Source of the DNA: Eledone cirrhosa
Taxonomy: Eukaryota
Direction of reading: 5' to 3'
NCBI GenBank assembly: GCA_964016885.1
Contig: OZ024755.1
Span: forward strand, 19,220,001-19,284,000
DNA length: 64,000 nt
Shown here: positions 6,988 to 58,469 of the stretch, one piece after another
How the letters are laid out: every line of letters begins with the position of its first letter
Position numbering within the stretch: position 1 is the stretch's first letter
Position numbers and translations under genes: made by a program
The notes under the pieces: model-generated
The model's input: the letters and a program-made list of their open reading frames with translations, nothing else
What the model was told of the DNA's origin: nothing
The model's database searches: none

Positions 6988-7178
6988 TTTAATTAGAAAG
7001 TGAACAACACAATATATAACTACTCCATTACCAAATGTTTCTGGGTCCTAGACAATATTAATATACGTCTGGATCGTTCATCAGGCAGATGAACTATCCG
7101 GACATAATTTATATTGTCTAGGATCCAGAAACCGTTGGTAATGGAGTAGTTATATATTGTGTTGTTCACTTTTTAATT
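6988..7178. mobile_element. Fold-back element with degenerate hammerhead-like arms (Penelope pseudo-LTR-like)
   Basis: Inverted arms of about 95 bp meeting near 7085. Each arm has C(T/A)GATGA...GAAAC..TTGGTA. Related to 56730-56835 and followed by (TA)n. Confidence 0.6.
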
Positions 7179-9039
7179 TTATATATATATAAGCTTCGCC
7201 GTAACAATGACTAAATATTTGTTTCTACTTTAGGCACAAGGCCAGCAATTACCCAGTGTATTACTGGTACTTTATTTTATCGACCCCGTAAGGATGAAAG
7301 GCAAAGTCAACCTCGGCGAGATTTGAACTCATGACTAAATAATATAGTCTAATAATGGGGCGTATAAACCAACTGAACGTAAAAAGCTGGATATCAGCAC
7401 ACATTATTTATCACTTATTTTTTATGTTTTAGATTTTGAAAGAAAAGGTTTACAAATTGGAATCCAAGAAGACCGAAATACTGACTAGAGAATTAGACCT
7501 AGATTATATAACGTAGTTGGTATTAAAATTAAATTAAAATATAATTGAAAAAGAAACTCGAAACGAAAGTTGATCGCGAAAAAAATTTTGTAAACTGTAA
7601 ACATTTGAAAACTGAATATAAAATATAAAATAAATGTTTTGTTTTATCCAATTTTATTTTTCTCAAATATAATTCTAGGTTTTTCCTTATGAACAAGGCC
7701 AACGATTTTGGGGGAGGGGCAAGTTAACGGTAATACTACTGTAGTAAAATTATATATTTTTTACTGTAAAATATACCAAAAGTTTATTATAATATTACAA
7801 ATATATAAGATTAAATAGAAGTACCTCCATATATATAATTAATTAATTATTGCAAGAAACCTTATATATATATATAACCAAAGCGAAACAGGTTATTCCT
7901 GATGTCATATAGTAAATATATAAGATTAAATAGAAGTACCTACATATATATAATCAAATAATTATTGCTAGAAACCTTATACATAATCAAAGCGAAACAG
8001 ATTCTTGCGTATGTCATATTAAATGTAATAATAATGTAGTAAAATTATATCATTTCTTGAACCTTATTAGTTTCTGAGAAGGATAAATGATAATTAAGTG
8101 GAGTTTATACTTTTCCGAAAGGATTTTTAATGAAATATAAATTTATAAATAGAAGTTAAACTTCATAACATGGACATATATAGCTAGGACTATATAAATT
8201 GAAAGTAGCTGATGTTCCGTTTTCGTTATATCTCTTCACGTAAATAATAACTTAACATTTCAGACAAAGATCAACAAGTATTGTAGAGGAAAGGTTTCGA
8301 AGTGTTTGTTTACATTATATATATCCATTCTTCTCATTTATTATTATTATTATTATTGATCTGATAGGACTTTCATCCTTACGGGGTCGATAAAATAAAG
8401 TACCAGTAATGCACTGGGTAATTGCTGGCATTGTGCCAAAAGTAGAAACAGTTATTATTGATCTGAGATCAAATCCTGCCGAGGTTAAACCTGCCTTTCA
8501 TCCTTACGAGGTCGATAAAATAAAGTACCAGTAATACACTGGTGTAATTGCTGGCCTTGTGCCAAAAGTAGAAACAATTATTATTATTATATATATAAAA
8601 AATAAATCAGGATGGATTCGATTTGAAACTGGTTGCGCCGTTACTCAACAGAGTACTCGATTCTTGGGGTAGTAGAGTGTGGTTACGGTTATATTATTTA
8701 ATGAGTCGGGACACCGACCGCTGAGCTCTTGCCGTTTCAACAGCTAGTTCAATACTGGGACTAGCTGTTGAAACGGAAAGAGCTCAAACCTGAAGTGCCC
8801 CGGGACCCACAAGGTCTAAATCCAACCCTGTTTATATGTATATCGAATTTTAGACTAACTGGAAAAAATACATATCTATAAAGATATATATGATAAATAA
8901 TAATTTTCGAGGTGTAGAAACCATTCTACGAATGTGAAATTGAATAAGTGTACAGCAAATAAGTATATTCATATTATTTTAATAAAAACTGCTAATAAAT
9001 GCGAGAGAAAAATCCAAAAAAACATTTAATTGTTCTTAC

Positions 9040-9215
9040 CTTTAAAATATTATCCGTTTCAATTTTGCGCCATTTGCTGTGAATGGTGACTTATCAGACA
9101 ATTGACCTTTGACCCGGTAATTTTACCACCTGTTGTTAAATAAAGGTAATCTACTTTTCGCACAGATTTCAGGTTTTCATAACAAATGCTGAAAGTTACA
9201 TCCTAACTGATTGGA
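9040..9215. promoter_or_regulatory. Candidate promoter/first-exon region, possibly bidirectional
   Basis: Minus-strand donor AAG|gtaaga at 9039, YY1-like AAATGGCG (9068-9075, minus), perfect DR1 TGACCTTTGACCC (9103-9115), plus-strand AAAG|gtaatc at 9146, ATTGG at 9210, all in non-repetitive sequence. Confidence 0.35.
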
Positions 9216-11159
9216 AATTTCTCATAATAAAAAATAATTTATTATTATTTTTTTAGTACTAAATTATTAGTAAGTGTTGACTAATCCGTAAATGAATGTT
9301 TTCACGTAATCAAATGACTGAAAATATTATTTTTCGTAACTAAATTAACAATAGTTGGAGTAAAGATTATTTATCGGCAATAATGATAATAATATTTATA
9401 TATTTAAATCTGTAGTTTAAGCTAGAAGAATTAACAATTTCAAAGACACAAATATAACATTTAATAGCCTTTATTGGGGTGAGGTGGGGTATTTTCTTTG
9501 GCAATATCATTAAAAGTAAATATAAAAAAATAAATGAAAGTAATGTTTCTACTTTTGGCACAAGGACAGCAATTATCCCAGCGCATTACTGGTGCTTTAT
9601 TTTATCGACCGCATAAGGATGAAAAGCAAAGCTTAACCTCGGCGGGATTTGAACTCAGAACGTAAAGTAACTCTACGCTGCAAAACATGGCGTCTGACGC
9701 TCTACCGATACTGCCAAAATAAATAAAAGAAAACGTGCATTATTTTTCCATTCTGAATTCAAATCCTGCCGAGGTTGACTTTGCCTTTCATCCTTACGGG
9801 GTCGATAAAATAAAGTACCAGTAATGCACTGGGTAATTGCTGGCCTTGTGCCTAAAGTAGAAACAATTATTATTATTATTATTATTATTAGTTTTCTTCT
9901 TTTTGTATTAACTACAAAACTTAGTGTAGTGTTCTTAGATAACAGACCACTATCCTTCTAGCTGCATTTTCCTAAACATGTTGGCACCAGGAAACATCTG
10001 GAATCCTGCACCAGACTAAAAATTCCTCCTACTTCTACTATAACAGCATAGTTGTATTTACAGCTTCGGTATTGATTTTTCCATTCTGAGTTCAAATCCC
10101 GCCGAGGTTGACTTTGCCTTTCATCCTTACGGGGTCAATAAAATAAAGTACCAGTAATGCAAAAGTAGAAACAATTATTTTTCAATCGTTTTTTTTTTTT
10201 ATTTTGAAAAGCGTTAGTTGTACATCTTAACGCTAGTTTCTATTTCTAGCATATTTCCAATATATTTAATGTCCATATTTACATACAACTGAAGTAAGTA
10301 TGTTTATTTCTTTTAATAAACCATTTATTTATTTCACAAAAGAAACGTCCCTGCTGGAAGAAGACAAATTGGATAATCAGAATAACGAGAAAACTGATAA
10401 ATCATGTGTACGAGGAATGTGGTGGGATTGTAGTTATTCTAACAGAAATGGTGGACTTTGTTTATCAGAGACGCACAGGGCTTGTTTGTAGTAAGAATAC
10501 ATGAAATAAACTTTTTCTAATCTGGGGAAAACTCTATAGACGTAGTTGATTGCTTATGTTACTTAGATGACATAAATATGACTTTGGTGTATATGAACAA
10601 TTGTTATTGTTTAATGAACACAACCACAAGGATATGGTCTGAACGTGTAAGAGCCGAACTCCCACTGTCATCGCCTTCATCTCTCTTGCCCTCCCTATCT
10701 CTCTGTAAGGTGAGCAAATAGGGTCCCACGTGCTGGCCTCCTCACAGCGCCGATGGACAGAATGGAGAAGGCATTTCCCAGGAGGATGGTGGATGGTAAG
10801 TGTGATGCGCTGGAAGAGCCATTCCAACTCACGAAGCTCATACCTGCAGCTGGCCAGCTCAGCACCTATGGCGGTGAGTAGGGAGGTAGACCTGTGGAGG
10901 TTATTCTGAAAGTATAGTAGAAAAATAAGAACAGAATGGGCAAAAGTTCAGGGAGCTACTGCCTCTGTTGGTGACAAATGGTTCCTCTCTCTCTCTCTCT
11001 CTCTCTCTCTGAACGAATTGGAAGACTATGATGCCTATATGTGAAATATAATGTGGCATGGCAGAGAATCATTTGAGGAAGATATGTGAAGGCTGGAAAT
11101 AAATAAATTCGGCATGTGATTGTGTATGAACAGCAAAGCATAAATGAGCTGAGAGAATA

Positions 11160-11190
<31 letters not shown>

Positions 11191-11809
11191 ATATATATAT
11201 ATTTTTTTGCAGACATTTGTCCTCATTTTTTTGTGTAAATGCATTTCTCATTGTGTCCTATCAGATTTTAGGCTTCTGTGTCATGGTTGGTTCATTTTTT
11301 TTTTTTTACTAGCTTCTTAAGTAATGAAAAATTACTTCTTCTTGAAAAACTATTTTATTTTTAAACCAAATATCTTACTCCCGTTCTCTCACTCATTGTA
11401 AATATATTTTTTTCAAAATTTAACTTCTTTCTTTTACTACGTGATACAATCCAGATGCTACTGTCACTGTCTTCTTTGGTGGCAAAATGAAGCAACTTTT
11501 CTATGACACCCAAATAATTGTTTCTACTTTTGGCACAAGGCCAGCAATTACCCAGTGCATTACTGGTACTTTATTTTATCGACCCCGTAAGGATGAAAGG
11601 CAAAGTTAACCTCGGCGGGATTTGAACTCAGAATGGCAAGGGCCGTAACTATGCGTCAAAGCATGGTGTCCGACCCTCTACCGATACTGCCAATCCACCC
11701 CAAATAATGTAGTAACATCATCATCATCATCATCACCACCATTTAATGACCATTATTCACAATAGCATGGGTTAGACAGATACTCAGGAATGAGAAGGAG
11801 GAGAAGAAA

Positions 11810-11840
<31 letters not shown>

Positions 11841-13787
11841 GGAAAAGGAAAAAGATAAAGAAAAAGAAGATTGACCATAAGAGGGGAAAAAAGCCAAATT
11901 ATCTCTAATAACTGCAGAACTAATGATAAATTATGAAAGAGCTCTAATATTCTGTGAAGTTAATGTTTGTGTTGTTTGTCTTGTGAAAACACAGAAAAGC
12001 ACTTATTGAAAATAAACTGGATAAACCAAAAAGCCATATTACTTGTAATATATAAAAAAAAAAAAAATTTTCAAAAACAATTGAATCAATAAAACTTGTT
12101 AAATAGCTGATATATTGATCAATTCAATAGAGGCAAGCAGTTATTTCAATATTATTGGTGATAACTAGTCATTTTTTAAAAGTGTTCTTGGTTAAAGGAC
12201 TTGTATGAACTTACTAGGATAGATAACTAATGATTACTTTCTATTGAATATATCTATCCACTGAAAGCTATATGATAGATGTAAGAAATTGTTAATATAG
12301 AACAAAGGATAAATAAAGCCTTGAAGTTATTATTGATAAGTATTTATAAAGGAATGTAATAAATGAATATGTCTGATACAGGAAATTTCAAAGACAACCA
12401 AAAGTAATTTACACATACGCACAAACAAACCCAACATAAAACAGCATAAAACCAGCAAAAGTACAAATCAAATTTTGATAAATTAATGAAGAGAGAAAGC
12501 TTGCGGGTGTTAATTTTAAGGAAATTTAATTAATTATTGTTAATAATATTAACTTAATGGCTTCTTGTTTTGTTTTAGATCAGAACTTCTCTAAGTGGGT
12601 GCTACCTCTCCCCAGGGGGCGTTGAGAAGGTACAGTCATTGATTAATGAAATAGTCTACATGTACGTTTTTTTTTAAATCCCTAAATGTGTCAGAACAGC
12701 CGAGAGATAAGATTTGTATAACTAACTTACTAGCTGCAGATTCACAGTAGACAGACAGGCATTAGTTTATAAACAATGTCAGTAGATAGAAATTTGAAGT
12801 GTACAGAAGGAAGTATGTCTTAATCTTACCATTTAGTACCAAATCTTAGAAAATTACAAAATCTCTGATATAATCATAGTACTTTATTTTACAAAAGCAA
12901 GATGGTTGGATAACATCCATCAACTTGGCTGATCTTGCTTTGGAATCCACTTGGAGACTGTCGCTTCTGACAGGACCTGCTGAAAGGAGTATTTGAAGAC
13001 TCTTCCTTCATGATCCTCTAAAGAATGCGTGGGTAGTGGCAGAGAAGATGAAGATGAAGATGGAGAAAGGAGTAATAGTAATAGTTCTAAGACTATCTGG
13101 TATTCATATTGACAGATTTGTTGTAGTTTTTTTTTTTTTTTTTTGTATTTTCAAGCATTGCAGATACTATTTTTTCCCTTATAATGCATCTTGAAATTTT
13201 ACTGTGCATCTTAGAGGACAAAGGTTACATTTCTCATAAAGTAATTTTAACCCAAGAAGATGAGGGTTATCTATGCTAGACAGTAATTTGAACTCCTGTA
13301 TTTGACCTCTGAATGAAGTATAAAAAGTATATAGAGTTAAGATAGCAAATAAACAAAAATATATCATTAAAAAATAGAAAAAAAATAGATAATCACAAAA
13401 ATCCCTTGCTTTATTGGAAGATGATGGCATATGAACCAACTGGCTATATGTTGTATATAAACTTTTTTTTTTTTCTGTTTTCACTCTCCACAAACAACCT
13501 TGATTTTAACCCTCTCATGACCGTACTTTTAATGATATACACACTATTTCAATTAGTTAATGAAGAATTTTGAGGAATTTACTAAATTTATCAATTATTT
13601 CATTACTAAGATTGTAACTTAAAGTATAGTTCTTATATAAAATTATGTTGGAAACTTTTAAAATGGGCAGTTTTGTTTCACAGTACAAGAGTTGGTTTGG
13701 GCCGGGTTAGAAACTAAAGAGTTAAGGAGGTATTATCAAGTGACAAACATAAAATTGCAGTATGTTAAAAAATGAAGATCAACTAAA

Positions 13788-16556: not shown

Positions 16557-16605
<49 letters not shown>

Positions 16606-16757
16606 ATTAAAATAACAGATTAAAGTTTAAGCAAAGAATCGTTGCTTTCACCCTTCATAGGATCTTCTGAAACTAAAAAAAAAAGCAATCTGTGAGCGCA
16701 GAATTAAATATTTCGAAAAACGTTACACTATATATATATATACACACACTATATATA

Positions 16758-20843: not shown

Positions 20844-21133
20844 TGTATCCATTGTGATACTGTCTCTATTTTGTACTTCTGAAGAAGGGCTAAAGCCTGA
20901 CATGCCAAACTTTCTTTCTTCTTTCCAATATAAAGCATGAAACTAATAAGACTTTTTGTACCCCTGTTTGTTGTCTCCTTGAACTATATACATATATATA
21001 TATGTAAAGTTCTATTTAAATTGTTGGGATACAACAAGCAAATATTTTTGTAACTGATATAAAGCACTCAACAAATATTTGGAGTAAAAATACGATATCA
21101 ACAAATGGAAACTATATTTATAAAACCATATTT

Positions 21134-21196
21134 ATTTCATTATACATATTTCAAGGACACCAAGTTAAATTATGGTGTGCTTTCATCAGATAAAAT
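21134..21196 (-). ncRNA. Minimal type-I hammerhead ribozyme (left arm)
   Basis: Reverse complement of 21287-21349. Confidence 0.6.
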
Positions 21197-21286
21197 ATAA
21201 TATAGATCAGTCGGGAGCTTCCAACAGTAATGGTTGCATTTTTTAAGGGTATGTCAATATTTATTTATAAAACTGATCTATATTAT

Positions 21287-21349
21287 ATTTTATCTGATGA
21301 AAGCACACCATAATTTAACTTGGTGTCCTTGAAATATGTATAATGAAAT
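21287..21349 (+). ncRNA. Minimal type-I hammerhead ribozyme (right arm)
   Basis: ATTTTAT-CTGATGA-AAGCACACCA...TGGTGTCCTT-GAAA-TATGTA-TA-ATGAAAT. Confidence 0.6.
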
Positions 21350-21949
21350 AAATATGGTTTTATAAATATAGTTTCCATTTGTTAATATCGTATATATATA
21401 TATGTGTGTGTGTGCGTCTGTGTGTATATATATATATATATGAATGTATGCATGTGTGTGTTTATATATATGTATATATATGTCTGTACATAGTGACATA
21501 CAGATTAATTTCCTCAGCTGTCTTACTATAACCAAATATTTGACAGTAACTGTAACACTGTGTCACAAATAACCTAATTTTTTTTACTGAATTTATTAAT
21601 GACACATTCCAAAATGTTAAGCCAAATAAAATAAACTAAATGGATGAGAATATATATTTCAATTTATTAACATAACTTTATACATTATCTATAGAACTGT
21701 ATATGTATTAACTCAATAAGGGCCGAAACACTCACTTGAGCAGGGGTTTCTTCGCTAAAGATCTGCTGTCCAGCTCTTCTGAGTTTCTTACCACTAACGA
21801 CTCAACTTTATATACACTATATATATATATTAACTCAATCTTATACATTATCTATGGTGCAGTATATATATTGACTCAACTATATACACTATCTATGTAG
21901 GTAGGTAGAGGTGTAGGTAGGTGTGTGTGTGTGTAGGTGTGTAGGTGTG

Positions 21950-28810: not shown

Positions 28811-29184
28811 ATCATTATTTAGGAAAGGCGACAGATTGGTGGTATTGGTAGAGCATGTCGGACAACATGCTTTGCAGCATAGAGTTGCAGCCCTTTACGT
28901 TCTGAGTTCAATCAAGACATGTTTCACCTTATTAGTAAAACAGACTTCACCATAGTTGCTGAAGTAGAGATGAAAGAAGAAGAAGAAGAAGAAGAAATAG
29001 TCAATCGACTTTCGTCAAATCGGACTGAGGAAACAATGTCTTTCCAATTGCTAATACTCTCTATCGGTTGCAACATGAAATAAAGTGTCTTGCTCAAGGA
29101 TATAACGCATCGCCCGGTCCAGGGATCAAACTCACAACCGCATGATTGCGAATCCAATTTTCTTACCAGTCATCCACGCGCCTT

Positions 29185-29215
<31 letters not shown>

Positions 29216-29535
29216 TATTTACTCAGCTGTAGAAATTAGATGATAGGGACCCCAGTCCCTATCATTCCACTGCAAAGTGGTCGTGGAGGTGCTACGGCAA
29301 AAAAGCACCCAGCCCACACTGTAAAGTGGATGTGTAGGTGCCACGGAAAAAAAAAAGCACCCAGCACTCACTGTAAATGAGGTTGGTGTTAGGAAGGGCA
29401 TCCAGCTGTAGAAATCAAGCCAGAATAAATTCCTGTCCCACCCTTGCAATCAGGGAAAAGTGGACGTAAAATGACGATGATATATATCTATATATATATA
29501 TATAAGAACAAAAGATGGTTAAAGGAGTTCCATGT

Positions 29536-29604
29536 ATTTTATTATGCGCATTTCAAAAACAAACATCATCATGCAATAATATTTGTGTTTTCATCAGATA
29601 AAAC
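29536..29604 (-). ncRNA. Minimal type-I hammerhead ribozyme (left arm of fold-back)
   Basis: Minus strand GTTTTAT-CTGATGA-long stem II-GAAA-TGCGCA-TA-ATAAAAT, with palindromic ATGCGCAT stem III. Confidence 0.65.
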
Positions 29605-29722
29605 AGGAGGACATGATATGAAGGCTAAAAAACACTTGTGGATAGTGCAGTTTTAAATCAACATATCATATTAAAACTGCACTATCCACAAGTGTTTTTT
29701 AGCCTTCATATCATGTCCTCCT

Positions 29723-29791
29723 GTTTTATCTGATGAAAACACAAATATTATTGCATGATGATGTTTGTTTTTGAAATGCGCATAATAAAAT
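29723..29791 (+). ncRNA. Minimal type-I hammerhead ribozyme (right arm of fold-back)
   Basis: Exact reverse complement of 29536-29604. Confidence 0.65.
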
Positions 29792-29910
29792 ACATGGAAC
29801 TCCTTTAACCATCTTTTGTTCTTATATATTATGTATACTCCAGTCCTACAAACTGTAGAGTGCTTCTTATCCGATATCTGCATTGCTTTATTGTACTACA
29901 ATAAAACTCA

Positions 29911-29948
<38 letters not shown>

Positions 29949-30152
29949 TATAATAAGAAAATTATTGTGTACAGTGCTCAGGTGAACTACAATATATGTA
30001 TAATATATATATCAGATTAAAGTTTAAGCAAAGAATCGCTGCTTTCACCCATAATGGGATCTTCTGAAACTGAGTTTCAGAAGATCCCATTAAGGGTGAA
30101 AGCAGTGGTATAAATATACACGGGTGTGTATGATTGTGTATAGAAGATTATA

Positions 30153-30470
30153 TTAATAAAAGGAATTCCAACTTTGTCTGATTTACTCATTTTATTTACA
30201 ATCCTTTAAAATTATAATGATATTATAATGAAATAGTATGGTAGAATGTTAAGTGTTAATTGAACAAGTACTTTCATGCTTTCGCAATCTTCAGGTTCAT
30301 ATTCTGTGGTGACAGTGACAGTCAAGTTTGCAATTTTCAACTGTGACAGTTGAAAATTAACACTTAATTAGCACTTAACATTTAATATTCTACCATACTA
30401 TATCATTATAATTTTAAAGGATTGTAAATAAAACAAGTAAATCAGACAAAATTGGAATTCCTTTTATTTA
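30153..30470. mobile_element. Imperfect fold-back element enclosing a hammerhead
   Basis: TAATAAAAGGAATTCCAA...TTGGAATTCCTTTTATTA inverted arms of about 100 bp, followed by (TA)n. Confidence 0.7.
30261..30299 (-). ncRNA. Minimal type-I hammerhead ribozyme
   Basis: Minus strand TGAAC-CTGAAGA-TTGC(GAAA)GCAT-GAAA-GTAC-TT-GTTCA: perfect stem I TGAAC/GTTCA, GNRA-capped stem II, palindromic AGTACT stem III. Confidence 0.65.
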
Positions 30471-30554
30471 TATATATATATATATATATTATATATTATA
30501 TATATATATATACATATAAATAAATCCTACAGATCCATGCCTGATTCGACTTAC

Positions 30555-30654
30555 CAATCATTTCAACCATCATCACTTGTCTGGCTACGGTACTTTGAAC
30601 TAGAAAAGGCAAGCCAGATCCACTCCCAGAGGTTACTGACTGTTCATAAAGCTC
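30555..30654 (-). CDS. ACVR1: ALK1/2-like receptor GS-domain exon
   Basis: ttacag/gtaagt boundaries, 100 nt, phase 0 to 1. Reads [33 protein letters not shown](G): GS box TSGSGSG and FKBP12-binding LPF. Too short for the ORF track. Confidence 0.95.
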
Positions 30655-31143
30655 CTGTAATAATAGCAAACAAAAGTATTGTATAGTTTTGCTTTATTTC
30701 AAACATAAAAAGCATTATCTAACATTAAGAAGAGACTGGGGTGTAAAACAAGCCCTGGGTGACATTGACTAACAGAATGCTGACTGCTGGGGGTTAGAGG
30801 CATATATTTACTGCTCAGTAGAATATATATATATAGTAAAAAATTGAACGGGAACAAAACAGAGAGGCAGTACGAACAAAGGTTTATTAGTTTCACGCTC
30901 TTGAGAGTGGGGTGGTGGTTATATATATGTGTGTGTGTGTGTATGTATGTATGTTATATATATGATATTTTTATATATACTTACAGACACAAACACATGT
31001 ATACAGGTACAATTCTTCCTGTTTATATTCCATTGGTTGACATTACTGAATTCACTTCACCTCTACCTAATTTCTCATTTCAATGCTGCTGCTACCCCCC
31101 CCCCCCCCCCCCCTCAATTAAACCATTTACCACGAAAATACAA

Positions 31144-38534: not shown

Positions 38535-39722
38535 GCCACACTAACGTGGTTGGTCACACTGTAACGTGGTCGGCCGCACTGTAACGTGGTCGGCCGCACT
38601 GTAACATGGTCGGCCGCACTGTAACGTGGTCGGCCGCACTGTAACGTGGTCGGCCGCACTGTAACGTGGTCGGCCGCACTGTAACGTGGTCGGCCGCACT
38701 GTAACGTGGTCGGCCGCACTGTAACGTGGCCGGCCGCACTGTAACGTGGTCGGTCACACTGTAACGTGGTCGGTCACACTGTAACGTGGTCGGCCGCACT
38801 GTAACGTGGCCGGCCGCACTGTAACGTGGCCGGCCGCACTGTAACGTGGCCGGCCGCACTGTAACATGGTCGGCCGCACTGTAACGTGGCCGGCCGCACT
38901 GTAACGTGGTCGGTCACACTAACGTGGTCGGCTGCACTGTAACGTGGCCGGCCGCACTGTAACGTGGTCGGTCACACTAACGTGGCCGGCCGCACTGTAA
39001 CGTGGCCGGCCGCACTGTAACGTGGCCGGCCGCACTGTAACGTGGCCGGCCGCACTGTAACGTGGCCGGCCGCACTGCAACGTGGCCGGCCGCACTGCAA
39101 CGTGGCCGGCCGCACTGCAACGTGGCCGGCCGCACTGCAACGTGGCCGGCCGCACTGCAACGTGGCCGGCCGCACTGCAACGTGGCCGGCCGCACTGCAA
39201 CGTGGCCGGCCGCACTGCAACGTGGCCGGCCGCACTGCAACGTGGCCGGCCGCACTGCAACGTGGCTGGCCGCACTGCAACGTGGCCGGCCGCACTGCAA
39301 CGTGGCCGGCCGCACTGCAACGTGGCCGGCCGCACTGCAACGTGGCCGGCCGCACTGCAACGTGGCCGGCCGCACTGTAACGTGGTCGGCCCCACTGTAA
39401 CGTGGCCGGCCGCACTGTAACGTGGCCGGCCGCACTGTAACGTGGCCGGCCGCACTGTAACGTGGCCGGCCGCACTGTAACGTGGCCGGCCGCACTGTAA
39501 CGTGGCCGGCCGCACTGTAACGTGGCCGGCCGCACTGTAACGTGGTTGACCACACTGTAACATGGTCGACCACACTGCAACGTGGTTTACCACACTAACA
39601 TGGTTGACCACACTGTAACATGGTCGACCACACTGTAACGTGGTTTACCACACTAACGTGGTTGACCACACTGTAACGTGGTCAGTCACACTAACGTGGT
39701 TGACCACACTGTAATGTGGTTG
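38535..39722. repeat. GC/CpG-rich 20-bp minisatellite (about 58 copies)
   Basis: Unit CACTG(T/C)AACGTGG(C/T)CGGCCG, degenerate at both edges and running directly into the SINE-B 3' half. Confidence 0.95.
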
Positions 39723-42874: not shown

Positions 42875-44416
42875 TATGGTAATACCTGAGCCTATTTCAC
42901 TTTATGCTTATACTTAATTCCAGTATTTTTCAACAATAAAATGTCTACATCCTTGTAATACTTCTTTACACTTACTGCCTCCTACAATTCTGCTTCACTC
43001 CTAGTTCCCACTGAATTATTCTCGTTTTGCACCTGCTATTTCTCTCTACTCTGTTTATACATTTTTTTACTTCGTTTTTTATTCACATATCTATCTATAA
43101 ATATATATATATATATACAAATCTTTTTTTATTCATATATATCTTTTTATTTATTTATATATATATATATATTTTTTAAATTCATATATCTTTTTATTTA
43201 TTTATTTATTCACATATATATTTTTATTCATATATATATTTATTTATTATTATTTATATATATGTGTGGGTCTTTTTGTTTTTTTGAAGATGACTATATA
43301 TATATATACATATTTTTATAACTGTATTAGGTCAACACTTTCAATGTCACTTGTCATTTTTTTTAAATCAACATCCTCTTCCAACTCTATTATGTAACTA
43401 TTGGTAGTGGCATTCAAATAATATACACTGACTATTTCATAGTTTGGGCTGTCATCACTAATCTTATATCACATCACTATCAGGGAACACACACACACAC
43501 ACACACTCTTTTTGATGTGTGAGTGTCTGTACACAATTGACCACAAGGCCATGTTGATGATGTCAGTGCCAGCTAGAATCAGTAAAAGGAAATGGGGTCT
43601 CATAAAACACAAATCTAACATGAAAGTAAATGTAAATGAACCTAAAAGATTTGATAGTTTGTATCAGAAATAAAAGCAGTAAATAACCAGCAAAAGGGAA
43701 CCTCCACATGGTTGCTTGCCTTGCAGCAAACAGCAGCCAAATCTCTCTCAAATCGCACCCTATTTTTAAAAAGGGGAAGTGTGTGGCTTAATGATTAGAG
43801 AATTGGATTCGCAGTTGTGAGGTTGCAAATTAGATTCCTGGACCAGGCATTGCGTTATGTTCTTGAGCAAGACACTTTATTTCATGTGACAAGTAGATAG
43901 TATTAAAAATTGGAAAGAGCAATGGAAACATTGTTTCCTTGGTCTGATTTGAGGATAGGTGTCACAGTGTATTGTCATGTGTGGCCTACTTCTTTGTCAT
44001 CTGGAAGACTCAACAACTGGGAAAACTGGCAATCTATGTTCTTCATGTAGTATACATTATGTATTTTTGACATGGGTTTTATGGTCAGGTGCTTTAGGGC
44101 CCCACCACACACCCTTCGGGGCCTCATTTATTAAAATATATTTTTATTTTATCATTAGTTTATATTCTTTAACCATCACGAAAAATTATCTACATTACTT
44201 ATTCTTTATCATTAACATTAAAAAAATATTAATCATTTATAATCATTTAAAATTTTTTTCCCCTCAATCTTTTTATAGAAGGGTCTCAAATTTCTTATAG
44301 CTTAAGGACTCAGCACATGAAAGTCCTGCTCAGTATGTATGTGTATGTGTGTATATATATATTATTATTATTCAAAATATTAATAAATGAGAAATATTCT
44401 CATAATCAAAATATAT

Positions 44417-44477
44417 ATTTTATTATACATATTTCAAAGGTACAATGGTGTTTAAGTACGTTTTCATCAGATAAAAT
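44417..44477 (-). ncRNA. Minimal hammerhead ribozyme, same family as 21287
   Basis: Minus strand ATTTTAT-CTGATGA-AAACGTAC...GTACCTTT-GAAA-TATGTA-TA-ATAAAAT. Confidence 0.55.
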
Positions 44478-44955
44478 ATAAGATTTGATATGCGACATAC
44501 CGCTACGGTTTTGCTTATTCAATTCCAATAGTGGCAGTGATTTATTTCACCAACCCTCAAACGTTTTTATGCCACAAAAGATATGATAAACTTAGAGAAG
44601 AGGATGTGGAGCAAGGTAGAAATATAGAAGGGGGGGTTGAGATGGAAGATGCAAAGAAAAAGAAGAGAAATAAACAAATAAATAAATAAATGAATAAAAG
44701 AAGAAAAAAAGGGGAATAAACACAGAAGGAAGGGATGATGCGGGAAGAAAAAAGAAAGAAAAAAAATCTTTGGTTATATATATATATATATATATGACCA
44801 GTAACAGAATGAATGATATCTAAGATTAGCATAGAGTAATGTTAGAGAAAAGTGTTATTTATAAAGGAAAAAAAACTGAGAATATTAAAGAATGTAGTTC
44901 TGATTCAAAAATAAACTGGCTACTATCTCACACACACACACACACACACATACAC

Positions 44956-47234: not shown

Positions 47235-48400
47235 CCACTGCAAAGTGGTTGTGGAGGTGCCACGCAAAAAAGCACCCAGCCCACACTGTAAAGTAGACGT
47301 GGAGGTGCCACGCAAAAAAGCACCCAGCCCACACTGTAAAGTAGACGTGGAGGCGTCACGGAAAAAAGCACCCAGCCCACACTGTAAAGTAGACGTGGAG
47401 GCGCCACGCAAAAAAGCACCCAGCCCACACTGTAAAGTAGACGTGGAGGCACCACGGAAAAAAGCACCCAGCCCACACTGTAAAGTAGACGTGGAGGTGC
47501 CACGCAAAAAAGCACCCAGCCCACACTGTAAAGTAGACGTGGAGGTGCCACGCAAAAAAGCACCCAGCCCACACTGTAAAGTAGACGTGGAGGTGCCACG
47601 CAAAAAAGCACCCAGCACACACTGTAAAATAGACGTGTAGGTGCCACGCAAAAAAGCACCCAGCCCACACTGTAAAGTAGACGTGTAGGCGCCACGCAAA
47701 AAAGCACCCAGCCCACACTGTAAAGTAGACGTGGAGGTGCCACGCAAAAAAGCACCCAGCCCACACTGTAAAGTAGACGTGGAGGCGCCACGCAAAAAAG
47801 CACCCAGCCCACATTGTAAAATAGACGTGTAGGCGCCACGCAAAAAAGCACCCAGCCCACACTGTAAAGTAGACGTGGAGGCGCCACGCAAAAAAGCACC
47901 CAGCCCACACTGTAAAGTAAACGTGGAGGTGCCACGCAAAAAAGCACCCAGCCCACACTGTAAAGTAGACGTGTAGGCGCCATGCAAAAAAGCACCCAGC
48001 CCACACTGTAAAGTAGACATGGAGGTGCCACGCAAAAAAGCACCCAGCCCACACTGTAAAGTAGACGTGTAGGCGCCACGCAAAAAAGCACCCAGCCCAC
48101 ACTGTAAAGTAGACGTGTAGGCGCCACGCAAAAAAAGCACCCAGCCCACACTGTAAAGTAGACGTGTAGGCGCCACGCAAAAAAGCACCCAGCCCACACT
48201 GTAAAGTAAACGTGGAGGTGCCACGCAAAAAAGCACCCAGCCCACACTGTAAAGTAGACGTGGAGGTGCCACGCAAAAAAGCACCCAGCCCACACTGTAA
48301 AGTAGACGTGTAGGCGCCACGCAAAAAAAGCACCCAGCCCACACTGTAAAGTGGACGTGTAGGCGCCACGGAAAAAAAAAAGCACCCACCACTCACTGTA
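47235..48400. repeat. 48-bp minisatellite (about 24 copies) inside SINE-B
   Basis: Unit GTGGAGGTGCCACGCAAAAAAGCACCCAGCCCACACTGTAAAGTAGAC, followed by the SINE-B V-like domain and (GAT)n tail. Confidence 0.95.
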
Positions 48401-51602: not shown

Positions 51603-52020
51603 TATATAAATTATAATAATAATAATAATAAAAATGAGGTTTTGTTATGTCATTTCGTTTATTGAGTAGTGACACACGTTTCGCTATTGATCGGTTCATG
51701 GTTCGAACTGTATCGGCCTGGCCAGACTCTGGAATCAAAAGCTATATATATATATATGATGATGATGATTCTCTTTCCCGATCTTAATACAACAGATTTC
51801 TTCCAGAGAAGGCTAGAGAGTGAGAGAAAGGACATGAGAAAGAGATATAGAGGAAGAATCGACCTCAGTACTTGACTGGTACTTTTTTTTTATTGACCTC
51901 GAAGGATGAAAGGCAAAGCTGCAGGAGTTAAGCAACATGTAAATCCACAATAACTGCGATAACATCTAAACCTATGCTAACGTGGAAGATAGACGTTCAA
52001 TCATCTGGCAGGAAGGTATA

Positions 52021-52061
52021 CGTTGCTGACGAGAGCTAATAAGCTTGAAACTAGTACAGCG
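52021..52061 (+). ncRNA. Minimal type-I hammerhead ribozyme (Penelope-like)
   Basis: CGTTG-CTGACGA-GAGCT(AATA)AGCTT-GAAA-CTAG-TA-CAGCG: intact core, 5-bp stem II, palindromic stem III ACTAGT, stem I CGTTG/CAGCG. Predicted GUA cleavage after 52056. Confidence 0.75.
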
Positions 52062-52853
52062 TTCCTTTGTCAGTGTTGAACAAATGAGCAACGATGGTTG
52101 CTAGACACTGTACGGCTTAATACGGGATGTTTGTTTACAAACACACCGAGCATTATAATAAATGTTCGGTGAATCCATACGTACATATATATATATGTGT
52201 GCATGTATGTATATATAAATATACATACTACTGTACGTATACATACTTATATGATGATGATGATGATGATAAATAGCAGAAAAAGTGAACAAACTTTTAA
52301 GACAGGACAATAAAGGCTTAGTGTTGAATTGATGTGGTTTTTCTCTCGCTTTGATTATAATTTTTTGTGTATTATATTAATAAAGTCCCTAGCAATAATT
52401 AATTCTATATATATTATTTGTGTATATATTTTCATTGAATATATATACAAGAATGATAAACAATTTGTAATGTTATTTATATAACTGTGAATAAAACCCA
52501 TATAACAGGGCTGATTGGAAAGGGTTAAAGCATAAAACCTATCTATTCCACTGTTTGATCTATTTGTATTACTACTTATCTATACAAAACATCACCATTT
52601 AGTTGTATAATTGATAGAGGGGGGAAACTCCAGCACCCTTTGCTGAGGCGTGTGTTTGCATGTGGGTGTCATCTCACTTTTTAAATATATATATATAGAG
52701 AGAGAGAAGAGATATTTAATTTGTTGGAAATCCAACAAATATAGATGTTTATAACTGATTCAGAGCACTCAACAGATTCCTGGAGTAAGGAATAACTTGA
52801 ACCGTTAAGGTATATTATCCTTGGTCATGTCAAATATTTATAAAACATTTTGT

Positions 52854-52913
52854 ATTTTATCTGATGATAGCGAACCAAAATTTTTGGTACCCTTGAAATA
52901 TATATATAATAGA
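52854..52913 (+). ncRNA. Minimal hammerhead ribozyme, same family as 21287
   Basis: ATTTTAT-CTGATGA-TAGCGAACCAAAATTTTTGGTACCCTT-GAAA-TATATA-TA-ATAGAAT. Base of stem II is degenerate. Confidence 0.5.
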
Positions 52914-52966
52914 ATAAATATGGTTTTATAAATATAGTTTCCATTTATTTAATATCATTGTGTGTA

Positions 52967-53066: not shown

Positions 53067-53103
<37 letters not shown>

Positions 53104-53133
53104 AGATCAAAAGATGGTTAAAAGATTCCAAGT

Positions 53134-53202
53134 ATTTTATTATGCGCATTTCAAAAACAAATATCATCAAGGGATGATATTTGCGTTCTCATCAGATAAA
53201 AT
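53134..53202 (-). ncRNA. Minimal hammerhead ribozyme, same family as 29536
   Basis: Minus strand ATTTTAT-CTGATGA-GAAC-GCAAATATCATC(CCTT)GATGATATTTGT-TTTT-GAAA-TGCGCA-TA-ATAAAAT, with a 12-bp stem II. Confidence 0.65.
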
Positions 53203-53384
53203 AGGGAGACATGATATGAAGCTTAAAAAACACTTGTGAATAGGGAAGTTTTAAATCAACATATAAAACTCACCTACATATATATATATATATATTAAAT
53301 GTACGGATTAAAGTTTAAGCAAAGAATCGCTGCTTTCACCCCTTTTACGGGAACTTCTACTCTACGAGTTTATATATATATAAA

Positions 53385-53770
53385 ATCTTATTTTATTAAG
53401 TTTGTCAACATAACCGCCATCATAATATTACAAATAAAGAGAGAGAGAAAACAAACAAACAAGCAGGTAATACACACATCTAGGACCATGTACGAAAGGA
53501 TGGTGAAAGTGGTGGACAAACGAACCACTGCCAAAACAAAAGATAACCATGTCGCGAGGAGCTGTGGAAAGACGTCTCTAATCGTTTTTGAGGCAAGTCA
53601 ATACGCTCGCAGCCTTACCACGGGCGATGGCGAGGCATGTGCGCTGTAACAGCCAAGCACCTGCACGACCATCACCAGTTACCTCGGTTAAGCGAGTTGC
53701 CAGAGAAGACAAGAACCTTGCAGTTAGCGGCCCGACTTCCACCAAACGTAGTTGACCGACAGATCACGGT
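53385..53770 (-). mobile_element. CRE-clade (restriction-like endonuclease) non-LTR retrotransposon 3' fragment
   Basis: Minus frame ending at TAG 53578: VGPLTARFLSSLATRLTEVTGDGRAGAWLLQRTCLAIARGKAASVLTCL, matching the recalled CRE C-terminal motif RL...TGD.R...L.QR.S.AI.RGNAAS.L. AATAAA near 53395, TA tracts on both sides. Confidence 0.65.
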
Positions 53771-53919
53771 ATATGTATATATATATATAATGTATAATTA
53801 AATTTTGCTCTGGTACTTACATAGAGCACTCTTCACTCCTATGACTTTTTCTGTTTTCAACGGAAACTTCAATACTTATATATATATATATTTTAGTATA
53901 TGTTGGTTGTTTACCGACA

Positions 53920-53962
<43 letters not shown>

Positions 53963-54464
53963 TATTTTTAACTGATATACATTGCTAACTGATATATTTT
54001 TCTATCGAACGTACATTATAAAAGAAATGCAGTTAGCTTACTCAATCAACGAACATAAACAAAAGGGCTTTTGATTTATAGGAATTTAGAAATAGTGGTT
54101 TAACATTTCACCACACCCACTATATTACTACTACTCAAGAAAATATTTCATAACTCGTTCCTTTCGACAAAGAACAGAAGCCTTGAAGGGGAATTGGTGG
54201 AAAATTCTTATAGTGGGTGAAGTGAAGTGAAGTGAAGTGAAATAAAGTCTTGTAATTTGGGTGCCACACAAGGAATTATTCGTTTTATCTCTTAACTAAA
54301 TCATATTTTTTTCAGGTCTTTATTTACTTTTGATAATTAGAAATTGTCTTGTTAAGTTATTTTTTCAGACAGTACGATATTATATTTATTCTTTAATAGT
54401 GAAGTTTTTATGGGGGGGGGGGGGGGGGGGTTGATTGTATATATATTTATATATATACATACGA

Positions 54465-54615
54465 TGAAAGGTTCCTAAGAGACCTAAACTCCCGAATTCT
54501 TTTTACAGGGTTTAGAAAAACTGAAGGACCGCTGCAATAAGTGTGTGAATATGTTGAATAAAATCATAATTAACTGATCCTCATTGTCTTTTACCCAAAG
54601 CCAGGAACTTTCCAG
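54465..54615 (+). mobile_element. Mariner-like transposon remnant (internally deleted)
   Basis: PEFFLQGLEKLKDRCNKCV...YVE* resembles the mariner transposase C-terminus (FF..GI.KL..RW.KC....YVE). Confidence 0.5.
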
Positions 54616-54622
54616 TACCCGT

Positions 54623-54654
<32 letters not shown>

Positions 54655-54744
54655 TTTATAGTTGAGACAGTAAACAAAAACAAACAAAAAACGCGGAAGT
54701 GAAGAGGCAGTACAAATGTTAATATTAGTTTCACGCCTGAGAGT

Positions 54745-54791
<47 letters not shown>

Positions 54792-54822
54792 CGTTGAGGT
54801 AGGTCATACATCAATTCATGTA

Positions 54823-54885
54823 TTTTATCTGACGAGGACGTACTGAAAAAACAGCACCAGTACCTTCGAAATATATATAATAAAA
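54823..54885 (+). ncRNA. Minimal hammerhead ribozyme
   Basis: TTTTAT-CTGACGA-GGACGTACTG...CAGTACCTTC-GAAA-TATATA-TA-ATAAAA, with a G-C pair at the base of stem II. Confidence 0.6.
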
Positions 54886-55202
54886 CATACATCTTGATTA
54901 TGTGAATGTCTTCATTTATTAATATTCTGAATAATATGATCATCATCGTTTAACGTCCATCTTCCACGCTTGCATGGGTTTGGACGGGAGTTTTCCCACT
55001 TGAGGCAAGAGTGGTTGTCTTGCTCGCATAGGACTGTCTGGCGGGTTTTCTACGTCTGGATGCCCTTCCTAACACCAACCACGTTTACAGTGTGGACTGG
55101 GAGGTTTTTACCGTGTTGCCTACACGGCCACATTACAGCGTGGACTGTGTGTTTTTTTTTTTTTTGTCGTGACACCTACACGACCTCATTTGTTTCGGAC
55201 TG

Positions 55203-55252
<50 letters not shown>

Positions 55253-55549
55253 CAAAGCGAGAAAAAAAACTTCAATTTTCAAGAATAAATATACCACAGT
55301 CTGAGAAATTATAAAAACTATTCCGAAATAAAAAAAAAAAAAACTAACGAAAATATGATTTAGATAAGAGAGAAAACGAATAATTCCTTCTGTAGAAGTA
55401 ATGTCTGGCAACCAAATTCCAAGAAATGTAAACAAAATGCTCTGATAAGATATATTTTTGGACGAAATGTTGCAGTTAAAGTAGTTATATCTTATTTAAT
55501 TCTGACGATCCTTAATATTGAGTTACACACACATACATACTTACATATA

Positions 55550-55563
55550 GTTAGTGTCTTCTT

Positions 55564-55596
<33 letters not shown>

Positions 55597-55985
55597 GTTA
55601 GTGTCTTCTTAAACACACACACACACATATATATATATATAGTTAGTGTCTTCTTAAACACACACACACACATATATATATATATAGTTAGTGTCTTCTT
55701 AAACACACACACACATATATATATATATATTTAGTGTCTTCTTACACACACACACACATATATATATATATATTTAGTGTCTTCTTACACACACACACAC
55801 ATATATATATATATTTAGTGTCTTCTTACACACACACACACATATATATATATATTTAGTGTCTTCTTACACACACACACACATATATATATATATTTAG
55901 TGTCTTCTTACACACACACACATATATATATATATTTAGTGTCTTCTTACACACACACACACACATATATATTTAGTGTCTTCTT

Positions 55986-56056
<71 letters not shown>

Positions 56057-56175
56057 TATATACACACACACATATATATATACACACACATATATACACA
56101 TACACACACATACACATACACACATATATACACATACACACACATATATACACATACACACACACATATACACAT

Positions 56176-56220
<45 letters not shown>

Positions 56221-56235
56221 ATGTCTTCTTACACA
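55550..56235. repeat. Compound minisatellite: fixed anchor plus variable (CA)n(TA)n
   Basis: TTAGTGTCTTCTTA repeated about 12 times at roughly 40-bp spacing, each followed by (CA)n(TA)n. Confidence 0.9.
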
Positions 56236-56264
56236 CAAAAAATATATACATACATGCGTACATT

Positions 56265-56301
<37 letters not shown>

Positions 56302-56303
<2 letters not shown>

Positions 56304-56700
56304 CGAAGGAAGTGTGGTAAGGAACCAGATGGATCATAACGTACCAGAGTACTCAATACTTAGGGTAGTAGAGTGGGTAATAGGAAAATGTTCAACCCCG
56401 ACGGCAGAGCTCAAGTCGTTTCGACGGCTATTTCCAGAAATAGCCGTCGAAACAGCTTGAGCTCTGCCATCGGGGTTGAACATTTTCCGAGAGAGAGAGA
56501 TGAAAAATTCGGTACCCAGACGGCTGAGCTCCTGCCGTTTCACCAGCTAGATCCGAACTGTTCGGATCTAGTTGTTGAAACGGCAGGAGCTCAGCCGTCT
56601 GGGTACCGAATTTTTCATATTGCCCACTCTACTACTCCAAGTATCGAGTATTCTGGTGAGTAATGGTCTAACTGGTTTTTACTGCATCCATTCTGATTTA
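56302..56700. mobile_element. Branched fold-back MITE-like element in (TA)n
   Basis: Diverged terminal inverted repeats of about 80 bp enclosing two near-perfect hairpins (about 56383-56488 and 56500-56619). Partial copies at 8606-8790 and 23798-23935, also TA-flanked. Confidence 0.75.
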
Positions 56701-56747
56701 TATATATATATACATATATATAATGTGTAAACAACACAATATAATTA

Positions 56748-56817
56748 TTCCATTACCAAAGGTTTCGAGAAACTAGACGATTCTTACAGAAACGTCCAGC
56801 TCGTTCGTCAGACAAAA
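56748..56817 (-). ncRNA. Hammerhead ribozyme-like fold
   Basis: Minus strand TTTTGT-CTGACGA-AC-GAGCTGGACG...CGTCTAGTTT-CTC-GAAA-CCTTTGG-TA-ATGGAA. Stem I extends into the flanking inverted repeat (cacaatataatta/taattatattgtg). Confidence 0.5.
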
Positions 56818-58469
56818 TAATTATATTGTGTTTATAATGTAATATAATTTGTGTATATATATATATATATTTTCATTTCAATGTGTAAGAATTATAAACA
56901 ACTTGCAATGTTATTGATACAACTGTAAATAAAATCGAAGTATTTTGATAACGTGAAAGAAATACTTATTGGTTAGAATATAGTTTGATATTTATATCAA
57001 AGATACGTACTTCCGCAAATAGAGCAAAATCAAAACATAGACAGGTGTTTTTATAAAAAAAACATAGTCGACTGTCGATATTATGGCATGTATAGAATTT
57101 TGTTATATTTATTGCTATCCTGACCTTAATTAGTGTAAATACAATCTGACAGAAGGAAAAATAAGTAACTGCTATATTTTTGTGTGTGTGTGAATTTCTT
57201 TTTATTTTTGACCGGAATGTTACAATGGCAAGAAGCCGGAGCTGGAAGCGTAACATGAGAAACATCGACTTCATGACCAAGAGATAGACTGTATGGAGCC
57301 AAGGAGCAGAACTATACATATAGAGATATACTGATAGAGAAGTGTGTGTGTGTTCCTCGAGAGTGTTTGTGTGTGTGTGTGTGTGTGTGTATTCCACTAG
57401 AATCACATTTTAAGTTATATGGCTTCCATAAATGTTTGTGTCTGTATATTTATATAAATATATAGTCGAAACCTCCTCCATTTCCACCAAGCATGAACCT
57501 AATATAACTAACAATTGCCTCCTGTGTTTTGTTTCTTTCATTTATTAACTATATATATACATATATATTAGAAAGAGAGAGAGAGAAGGAAATAAAAGGG
57601 TAAAGAGAGAGAGTTGAACAGAAAAATGGAAGAGACAGAAAGAGAAAAAAATAAAAATAATATTCAAATATATTTATCTTGGTCTATTAACTCTATCTCA
57701 GTATATTACTAGTATTTATTTGTCTTCAATCCAGTCGGATGAGCAAATTCTCAATCTAAGCAGGATTTCAACAAGGTATCTGATACAGTCAACTTCAACT
57801 CTCCGTTACATACAAATAATAGGAATATAATAAAGGAATTTGGACGTTTAATAAAATATGGTTTACTTACTGTCTATTAATTTTAGATATCTTCTACCAT
57901 TTGAATCCTTTAATTAGTTGAAGACCTAACAAACTTAAGTGGTGAAGAGGCGAGGAATGTTTTCGTATTCCAGGTTAAGGTAATTCATTTTCCTCTCTCT
58001 ATTTCCGAAGAGTGTCATTCACGAGAAGATAACTCTCAGTATCTTTTTGTTTACATTGTGATTCTTCCGGTTTGAGGTTGGTTCCTTTTATAGAAAAAAC
58101 ACGCCTTCATTTAATTAGCAACGAGTAGTTGGTTCGATTCCTGGACTGGGTTGGGTTGTATTCTTGAGAAAAACATTTCATTTCACGTTGTTCCAGTGTA
58201 CACAGCTGAAAAGGAGTACTAGCAATAGCTAGGGGTTTAACCCTGCAATAGACTGACGTCTTATCCAGGGGAGTCTTGTACTCCCAATCGCTTAACGCCA
58301 TGGAGACTTCTCACTGCTAGAAATAGCAGCTGAATATTCCTTAAATCATACCCTAATGGTTAAAAAAAATAAATCATGAAAAAAATAATGAAAAATGTAG
58401 TCATGTATATATGCTGGTATAGACACGTCCTCCTCCCCTTACCCGATCGACCTAATAAGGCCTTACTCT

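Follow-up and report, generated by a model that had tools for sequence, protein, structure and literature searches.

Hammerhead-type motifs at TA repeats of an Eledone cirrhosa locus probably belong to Penelope-like elements and one tandem retrozyme

The question raised by this locus is whether its hammerhead-like motifs, several of them in inverted arms beside TA repeats, represent a mobile class of their own or copies of elements that are already known. A sequence-only reading of the window, that is, the whole stretch of 64,000 nt of Eledone cirrhosa DNA that was analysed, had proposed an undescribed class of ribozyme-bearing mobile elements composed of several non-coding, Penelope-derived families. 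Our study does not bear out a new class, as the arrangement is a known one in Penelope-like elements (PLEs). We consider it very probable that the motifs are the pLTR hammerhead-type cores of protein-coding PLE families together with one tandem retrozyme, and that the fold-backs are likely by-products of insertion at TA repeats. Hammerheads in pLTRs, their occurrence as opposite-strand pairs, a preference for TA targets and a Hydra family in an octopus have all been published: Cervera and de la Pena (2014, PMC4209133) read opposite-strand hammerhead pairs 100-700 bp apart as truncated PLEs, and the supplement of Craig et al. (2021, PMC8557442) includes Hydra-1_Obim, a family of Octopus bimaculoides that inserts into (TA)n.

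Minimal type I hammerheads with the full core number 11 in the window and are spread over 9 sites, with C3 at 21189, 29597, 30294, 44470, 53195 and 56811 on the minus strand and at 21294, 29730, 52026, 52861 and 54829 on the plus strand; the full cores noticed earlier are thus present, the positions given for them being motif edges. A descriptor that required the core boxes, at least 3 pairs in stem II and 5/6 in stem I returned 12 motifs, against a mean of 0.17-0.26 (maximum 3) in dinucleotide shuffles (3 x 200). Two of its matches, 31390 on the plus strand and 16142 on the minus strand, are probably chance, and the hammerhead at 52861, which has mismatches in stem II, escaped it. Stem III is perfectly palindromic in 6 of the 12 descriptor motifs (shuffles: mean 0.005-0.01, maximum 1), but the stem III of 56811 is a 3-bp hairpin, the type found in family F. 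The claim that stem II pairs despite sequence differences was also upheld: 44 distinct AT-rich variants have a mean MFE of -7.0 kcal/mol, compared with -2.6 kcal/mol when shuffled, and compensatory swaps occur at two positions, G-C/A-U (22/20) and C-G/U-A (23/17), although these variants are related sequences and the swaps are not independent events.

The idea that AT-rich DNA yields such motifs by chance, or that they are fold-back artefacts of the assembly, draws on two results. The Rfam models, a check that the earlier reading had recommended, gave no hammerhead match in the window at E up to 1, their output being noise from microsatellites and hairpins and one tRNA-like match, and isolated motifs fold weakly (z from -3.1 to +0.1 for 8 window motifs). 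Such an origin is nevertheless hardly credible in view of the excess over shuffles, the compensatory changes in stem II, the thousands of family copies with controls of 0, and ends that are asymmetric and family-specific. The window motifs are genuine hammerhead-type cores and putative self-cleaving ribozymes.

Inverted arms that both carry a hammerhead, which had been described as a frequent form, occur in the window only at three places. In the decayed family F pair, a minus-strand pLTR arm with a 61-nt tail (6935..7084; core intact, stem III mismatched) is followed by an untailed plus-strand arm (7085..7178; core mutated, TA run at its end). Family A, a Hydra-type PLE, provides a minus-strand arm with a 92-nt tail (20998..21210, hammerhead 21189) and an untailed plus-strand arm (21212..21393, hammerhead 21294), and family B, also Hydra-type, an untailed minus-strand arm (29498..29666, hammerhead 29597) and a plus-strand arm with an 83-nt tail (29673..29913, hammerhead 29730). 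The hammerheads 44470, 52026, 53195, 54829 and 56811 lie instead in single arms: a minus-strand pLTR arm 74% identical to family A (44366..44540), a plus-strand partial monomer of the family D retrozyme (51989..52253), an untailed minus-strand arm of family B (53104..53268), a plus-strand pLTR arm of family C, which is related to A and B (54788..54930), and a minus-strand arm of family F (56722..56837). Family E, a Neptune/Nematis-type PLE, has a minus-strand arm with a 39-nt tail (30111..30344, hammerhead 30294) and an untailed plus-strand arm that starts 3' of the hammerhead (30366..30474). An untailed A-related arm (52790..52960, plus strand; hammerhead 52861, with 2 additional bases in stem III) adjoins a tail-only arm of an A-related family (52713..52788, minus strand). 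Family G, Hydra-type as well, contributes an arm with a U4-to-A hammerhead-like motif at 16669 (16605..16700, minus strand), an inverted pair (30010..30105) whose minus strand carries the same kind of motif at 30066 and a 3' fragment (53298..53345, minus strand). A family H inverted pair is truncated within its own hammerhead (56302..56489), longer copies of the family having a U3-A8 core and a 5-bp stem III, and an H-related inverted pair (56500..56700) is also truncated; the G arm at 16605..16700 and the H pair were absent from the earlier reading. The association with TA tracts was confirmed, since 13 of 22 arm ends in the window lie no more than 6 nt from a TA run of at least 4 units, whereas 7.9% of the window is within 10 nt of such a run.

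No PLE ORF was found within the window, but in other genome copies the arms of families A, B, E and G run into ORFs with reverse transcriptase (RT) and C-terminal endonuclease. The earlier view therefore holds as regards several families of Penelope origin, and fails in taking ORF-less arms for independent non-autonomous families. In family A, tandem pLTRs 4136 bp apart enclose a broken ORF, and a 436-aa RT-EN frame is also present; in family B, the frames that stay open between pLTRs measure 821, 808 and 775 aa; family G has a 645-aa frame within a 3259-bp tandem. The proteins of A and B gave no match to RT or GIY-YIG families in Pfam, which is blind to them, and their putative Hydra-type assignment rests on motifs and alignment. 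Like the Hydra clade PLEs of PMC8557442, the Hydra-type families show DKT, a CxCX5C linker, CxxC and CxH around conserved E and N, an RW motif (third residue T, I or R; RWK in the clade), a C-terminal endonuclease, a hammerhead and (TA)n insertion. Their tandem units measure 3.3-4.1 kb, with long 3' UTRs, whereas the clade is mostly below 3 kb, which is a tendency and not a diagnostic trait. Hydra-1_Obim is annotated as 'no pLTR' while the families here have clear pLTRs and tails, a comparison made by description and not by sequence identity.

In family E, an upstream ORF1 of 476 aa overlaps ORF2 (775 aa) in another frame, and ORF2 matches RVT_1 (E 2.9e-6, below the curated cut-off) and GIY-YIG (E 3.3e-6) in Pfam. 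This overlap, together with DKG, a CX4CxxC linker (CX2-5CxxC in Neptune/Nematis PLEs; PMC8557442) and GIY-YIG, fits Neptune/Nematis, to which an endonuclease fragment of family F is also similar. This clade label, which takes Neptune and Nematis together, is putative. For families F and H, the sole tie to ORFs consists of fragments between inverted ends, and no ORF of their own has been traced for families C and I or for the 44470 and 52861 types; any of these could therefore be non-autonomous. Family I is represented in the window by a single plus-strand arm (20848..20995) with 103 genome matches at 1 mismatch; no ORF partner was found for it, and A14 is changed to C in 12/12 copies read.

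Among the families traced, only family D, the one with the hammerhead at 52026, appears to be non-autonomous, and to this extent the non-coding character proposed earlier is retained. It is made of non-coding tandem units of 421 nt (420-430) with one type I hammerhead each, from monomers to 10-mers, with a longest ATG frame of 71 aa and a GC content of 36%. This fits the described non-LTR retrozymes, which are 150-450-bp tandem units with a type I hammerhead in each and resemble family D in being non-coding, tandem and low in GC (Cervera and de la Pena 2020, PMC7229834; Li et al., bioRxiv 10.64898/2026.07.22.740005). Unlike them as described there, family D as seen in the genome has a minimal and not a canonical hammerhead, a PLE two-end signature and inverted pairs of multimers. 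Family D loci had no shared non-unit upstream sequence and no adjoining ORF, upstream matches being partner arms or units, and no sequence-matched autonomous parent was found.

Genome copies were counted as pattern matches, which are lower bounds, and the reversed-pattern control was 0 in each case. There are at least 3,293 matches for family A, 18,107 for B, 46,109 for the A/B/C-type pattern, 10,723 for D, 8,397 for E, 1,282 for F, 15,876 for G and 2,498 for H, and at least about 85,000 for all families. Several young families have end copies in the tens of thousands, which sets them apart from the Hydra elements described in PMC8557442. The density of one motif per 5 kb stated earlier holds for the window and is a local hot spot: 7 window motifs fit the A/B/C-type pattern by eye, against about 1.0 expected from its genome matches.

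The inverted pairs are the part of the data that bears on how the fold-backs arose. Each family has two fixed sites, separated by 39-92 nt, at which its copies end 3', and (TA)n mostly comes next (98/118 cases for A, 69/77 for B, 14/19 for E and 26/56 for F). Of 104 close inverted pairs, 98 consist of one arm with the tail and one without it: A 20/22, B 13/14, E 11/12 and F 10/10 (2 ambiguous pairs of 60 excluded from these four), G 6/6 and H 38/40. The rule is looser in distant pairs (14/18), and it extends to the outer ends of the retrozyme (23/26 pairs, 3 of 29 being left out as ambiguous). At the family D locus L340, arms of 4 and 5 units have one tailed and one untailed end, and the units differ by 0-1 changes across both arms and by 4-42 from other loci. 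Divergence is likewise lower within than between pairs (A 0.022/0.052, B 0.029/0.057, F 0.072/0.136). Partial tandems and inverted 5'-truncated copies are also present. The contigs covering 28900-31100 showed no empty-site allele, and target-site duplication is masked by the TA runs.

One reading of such pairs would be a MITE-like non-autonomous unit with two hammerhead arms, transcribed and copied whole into TA repeats. Many pairs are ORF-less, as is the window; the spacing within pairs clusters at about 290-303 in B and about 331-338 in E; and 4 of 13 family E pairs have the same junction coordinates. However, this common E junction lies on a 5-nt overlap at the pile of 5' starts and is seen with both alternatives of the middle base, ORFs or fragments of them stand between identical arms at every distance, and the plus strand of a head-to-head pair carries just one sense hammerhead. 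The 73 inverted pairs have 69 distinct junctions and no fixed shared one, so the fold-backs are separate truncated, inverted insertions and not a copied unit, and the MITE-like reading is very improbable.

The 5' starts pile up at -86 in family A (26/108), -70 in B (13/54) and -44 in E (29/54), where a TATA-like box lies 31 nt upstream. A pile at the cut site was looked for in A, B, E and G and was seen in none apart from locus L211: starts within 3 nt of that site number 0/108 in A, 0/54 in B, 2/54 in E (one locus) and 0/64 in G. It is important to note that the loci sampled were mostly the first matches listed on one contig and were selected through a motif within the hammerhead, so that copies starting at the cut site are under-represented. 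The pile is probably a transcription start site rather than a cut site.

Under the preferred reading, that of insertion by-products of PLEs, the transcript would start within the pLTR, the element's protein would nick both strands of a TA tract, and reverse transcription would be primed twice, once at each fixed RNA site. With priming in the 5' pLTR, each cDNA would come to the 5' end of the RNA after 100-280 nt and run out of template, and microhomology could join the two head to head, giving an ORF-less fold-back. Most copies would apparently derive from uncleaved RNA, hammerhead cleavage may be slow and depend on dimers or on assistance by protein, and the PLE protein probably serves the retrozyme as well. 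Close parallels are found in vitro in the Poseidon PLE of Anolis (Frangieh et al. 2024, PMC11167929), in which two internal RT start sites also define the tail, targets are AT-rich and uncleaved RNA is the main template. Our families belong to different clades, with tails of 39-92 nt, and go beyond Poseidon in that genomic pairs use the two sites nearly one each per inverted insertion.

In inverted pairs, the untailed arm reaches further 5' in 32/73, the tailed arm in 13/73, and 28/73 are ties (p=0.007); the 13 give a mixed geometry, and 12 tailed arms consist of the tail only. An alternative in which one cDNA (or an antisense template, PMC3846280) primes itself by folding back, with later endonuclease trimming at the tail boundary, is compatible with the short palindromes and overlaps at junctions, with private variants common to both arms and with the ascription of the tail to endonuclease-mediated resolution (Craig 2021, PMC8557442). 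Self-priming predicts that the untailed arm never extends further 5', contrary to those 32 pairs, and it is at odds with the tail-only arms and with the nicking of both strands and extension from two RNA start sites seen in vitro (PMC11167929). We regard it as unlikely, while giving it considerably more weight than the MITE-like unit.

A broader proposal, which we advance tentatively and at somewhat below even chances, is that PLEs carry out obligate twin priming at fixed sites, with each inverted insertion using both RNA start sites, one per target strand; that the same machine goes repeatedly round a retrozyme circle on both strands, as locus L340 would illustrate; and that cleavage is perhaps dispensable in vivo. 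The last point follows from family G, in which a core with U4 changed to A and U10.1-U11.1 is fixed in more than 15,000 copies. These families form a very large, young natural data set on PLE inverted structures and tail formation, which bears on the activity of the pLTR hammerhead, on the need for it and on a possible role of PLE proteins in moving retrozymes. Because each pair has one tail and the retrozyme has PLE-type ends, sharp predictions can be made for the existing in vitro system, and the long open frames of families B and E would be of use for such work.

Lunse et al. 2017 reportedly treats PLE hammerhead variants, and U4-to-A and A14-to-C may be in print there. Relative to the publications compared, our additions are the one-tail rule, which the retrozyme follows too, the 5' starts away from the cut site and the fixed U4-to-A family. 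In the main text of a 2026 O. vulgaris repeat paper, hammerhead, retrozyme and Hydra are all absent, and the accessible part of Perreault 2011 reports U4C and active U10.1-U11.1 and no 'U4A'. The hammerheads described in PMC4209133 agree with ours in having a minimal core of type I, a long stem II and a palindromic stem III, in their thousands of solo copies with few in full PLEs, in the opposite-strand pairs and in the U3-A8 variant; families A and B differ in that 10.1-11.1 is often A-U and a mismatch often follows the third pair, G in its A at position 4, I in its C at position 14, and the E. cirrhosa genome in its number of matches. Two of the window copies previously taken as degenerate, 30045-30105 (G) and 20879 (I), are family-wide core variants and not mere decay, while the pair at 70xx is decayed as supposed, and the copy at 55444 is a plus-strand hammerhead-like remnant (55438..55490) with no relative among the loci compared and a core broken by a C3/A8 mismatch.

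In the window we identified 11 full hammerhead cores at nine sites, in broad agreement with the sequence-only reading, which counted at least ten loci with such cores, and the hammerhead feature of this AT-rich stretch, with its many microsatellites, is real. SINE-like repeats and a 37% protein match to Argonauta tentatively point to an octopod cephalopod as the source. The hammerhead descriptor gave 12 matches against 0.17-0.26 in dinucleotide shuffles, so that shuffled sequence does not match at a similar rate, and in a set of 44 distinct AT-rich variants stem II is much more stable in folding than its shuffled counterparts and includes the compensatory pairs expected of covarying stems. Stem III had been described as usually palindromic; perfect palindromes are indeed present (six, compared with at most one in shuffles), but in only half of the 12 matches. 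The proposed search with Rfam models returned no hammerhead in the window and single motifs fold weakly, as is to be expected of minimal motifs without a stable stem III. Inverted ribozyme-bearing arms were confirmed at three sites, but nowhere else in the window do both arms carry a hammerhead. As judged with one pattern, hammerheads are roughly sevenfold denser here than in the genome on average.

The hammerhead-bearing ends were assigned to families A to I, whose copy counts are lower bounds from pattern searches of the species' own 2.996-Gb genome, with reversed-pattern controls giving zero: at least 3,293 matches for A, 18,107 for B, 46,109 for the wider A/B/C type, 10,723 for D, 8,397 for E, 1,282 for F, 15,876 for G, 2,498 for H and 103 for I. 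These families had been read as lacking ORFs; elsewhere in the genome, hammerhead motifs spaced 3-4 kb apart enclose ORFs in A, B, E and G, and the inverted ends of F and H enclose reverse transcriptase (RT) and endonuclease fragments. In family A, tandem pseudo-LTRs (pLTRs) flank a broken ORF, and an RT-endonuclease frame of 436 aa is also present; family B has open frames of 775-821 aa and family G one of 645 aa. The proteins of all three carry the RW, DKT, YRDD, CxCX5C and CxxC/CxH motifs given for the Hydra clade of Penelope-like elements (PLEs) by Craig et al. 2021 (PMC8557442), the supplement of which reports a (TA)n preference for Hydra-1_Obim of Octopus bimaculoides; Pfam did not recognise these Hydra-type proteins. 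Family E, with ORF1 overlapping an ORF2 that matches RVT_1 and GIY-YIG, a DKG motif and a CX4CxxC linker, resembles the Neptune/Nematis pattern; this assignment, like the Hydra-type one, is by motifs and not by a tree. No own ORF was traced for family I or for the arm types C, 44470 and 52861. The suggestion of an undescribed mobile class does not hold, as PMC4209133 already reports pLTR-borne minimal hammerheads, very large numbers of solo copies and pairs on opposite strands, and PMC8557442 and PMC3846280 describe truncated copies in inverted orientation, a tail that is often confined to one end and the (TA)n preference.

In every family the arms of the fold-backs stop at one of two fixed 3' positions, which are set apart by a tail of 39-92 nt and mostly followed by (TA)n. 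Among sampled loci, mostly the first matches listed on contig C1, with some picked for opposite-strand neighbours and none by tail, close head-to-head pairs combine one tailed and one untailed arm in 54 of 58 cases for A, B, E and F together (two ambiguous pairs excluded), 6/6 for G and 38/40 for H; two sets of distant pairs do so in 14/18 and 18/21. We found no published count of this one-tail rule in our literature search. There are 69 distinct inversion junctions among 73 pairs; fold-backs are therefore not propagated as units, contrary to the idea of fold-backs as mobile units of their own. Paired arms diverge about half as much as arms from different insertions, in comparisons that are not independent. 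Counted from the core, the 5' ends cluster at position -86 in A, -70 in B and -44 in E and almost never fall at the hammerhead cut site; a TATA-like box precedes the family E cluster by 31 nt. Of the 73 pairs, 32 have an untailed arm that reaches farther 5' and 13 a tailed arm that does, while in 28 the two arms are level. Another short fold-back, at 6770-6880, follows a TA run and has three matches among the sampled loci.

From this anatomy, and from in vitro work on a PLE (PMC11167929), which describes two internal RT start sites, nicking and extension of both strands and a preference for uncleaved RNA, we infer twin priming at the TA tract. The element protein would prime twice at one tract, once per RNA start site; priming within the 5' pLTR would give short run-off cDNAs joined head to head, and priming within the 3' pLTR longer arms bearing the ORF. 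Fold-back self-priming (PMC3846280) remains a rival as the source of part of the pairs. A family E locus, L211 (G000:C1:21871500-21881499), is an 8.6-kb palindrome of two full-length copies whose arms show two differences in 4,310 bases; its exception to the one-tail rule sits at the inner junction, the outer ends being one tailed and one untailed. Both arms start at the predicted cut site, a single hint that hammerheads may sometimes cleave. Twin priming with one tail per pair is a testable lead.

Family D corresponds to the non-LTR retrozymes described in PMC7229834, and a link of such retrozymes to PLEs is argued in a 2026 preprint (Li et al., bioRxiv 10.64898/2026.07.22.740005). The head-to-tail units of family D, of 420-430 nt (36% GC), hold no long frame, form monomers to 10-mers and start 5' at points scattered across the whole unit; inverted pairs have tailed and untailed ends in 23 of 26 cases, a signature that our literature search did not find on a retrozyme. 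In the inverted array L340 (4 plus 5 units), the seven complete units, taken over the two arms together, show only 0-1 base differences among themselves but 4-42 from other loci, and at L132 and L339 two unit types alternate. This pattern fits a circle of one or two units as the template. It also fits a homogeneous source array or later DNA-level expansion, and the outer units of L339, which are more diverged, suggest that such expansion contributes.

Core variants were also found. Family G (30010-30105, 53298-53345 and 16605-16700), the pLTR of a Hydra-type PLE at L281, has A at core position 4 in 100/100 matches listed of at least 15,876, with a pattern that left this position free; positions 10.1/11.1 are U-U, and stem III has 4 bp. 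A family-wide U4-to-A core was not found in the literature search; Lunse 2017 may cover such variants. Family H (56302-56700 and 8738; also L299 and L300) combines a U3-A8 core, a 9-bp stem II and a 5-bp stem III, shows all four bases at position 7 among 12 copies, and has a monomeric type I hammerhead as its MFE fold (z -2.2); its fold-backs are mostly truncated within the hammerhead. Position 14 is C in all 12 family I copies read (20848-20995; L350-L361). A relaxed descriptor applied to loci L001-L338 yielded many further small hammerhead families, one with C at position 4. Other repeats in the window include a tandem array at 61039-63662 (70-bp unit, 37.5 copies, 99% identity), GC-rich arrays at 38542-39643 (20-bp unit, 55 copies) and 47236-48377 (48-bp unit, 24 copies), and a tRNA-like Rfam match at 3588-3651 on the reverse strand (score 30.3, gathering threshold 29), possibly a SINE head.
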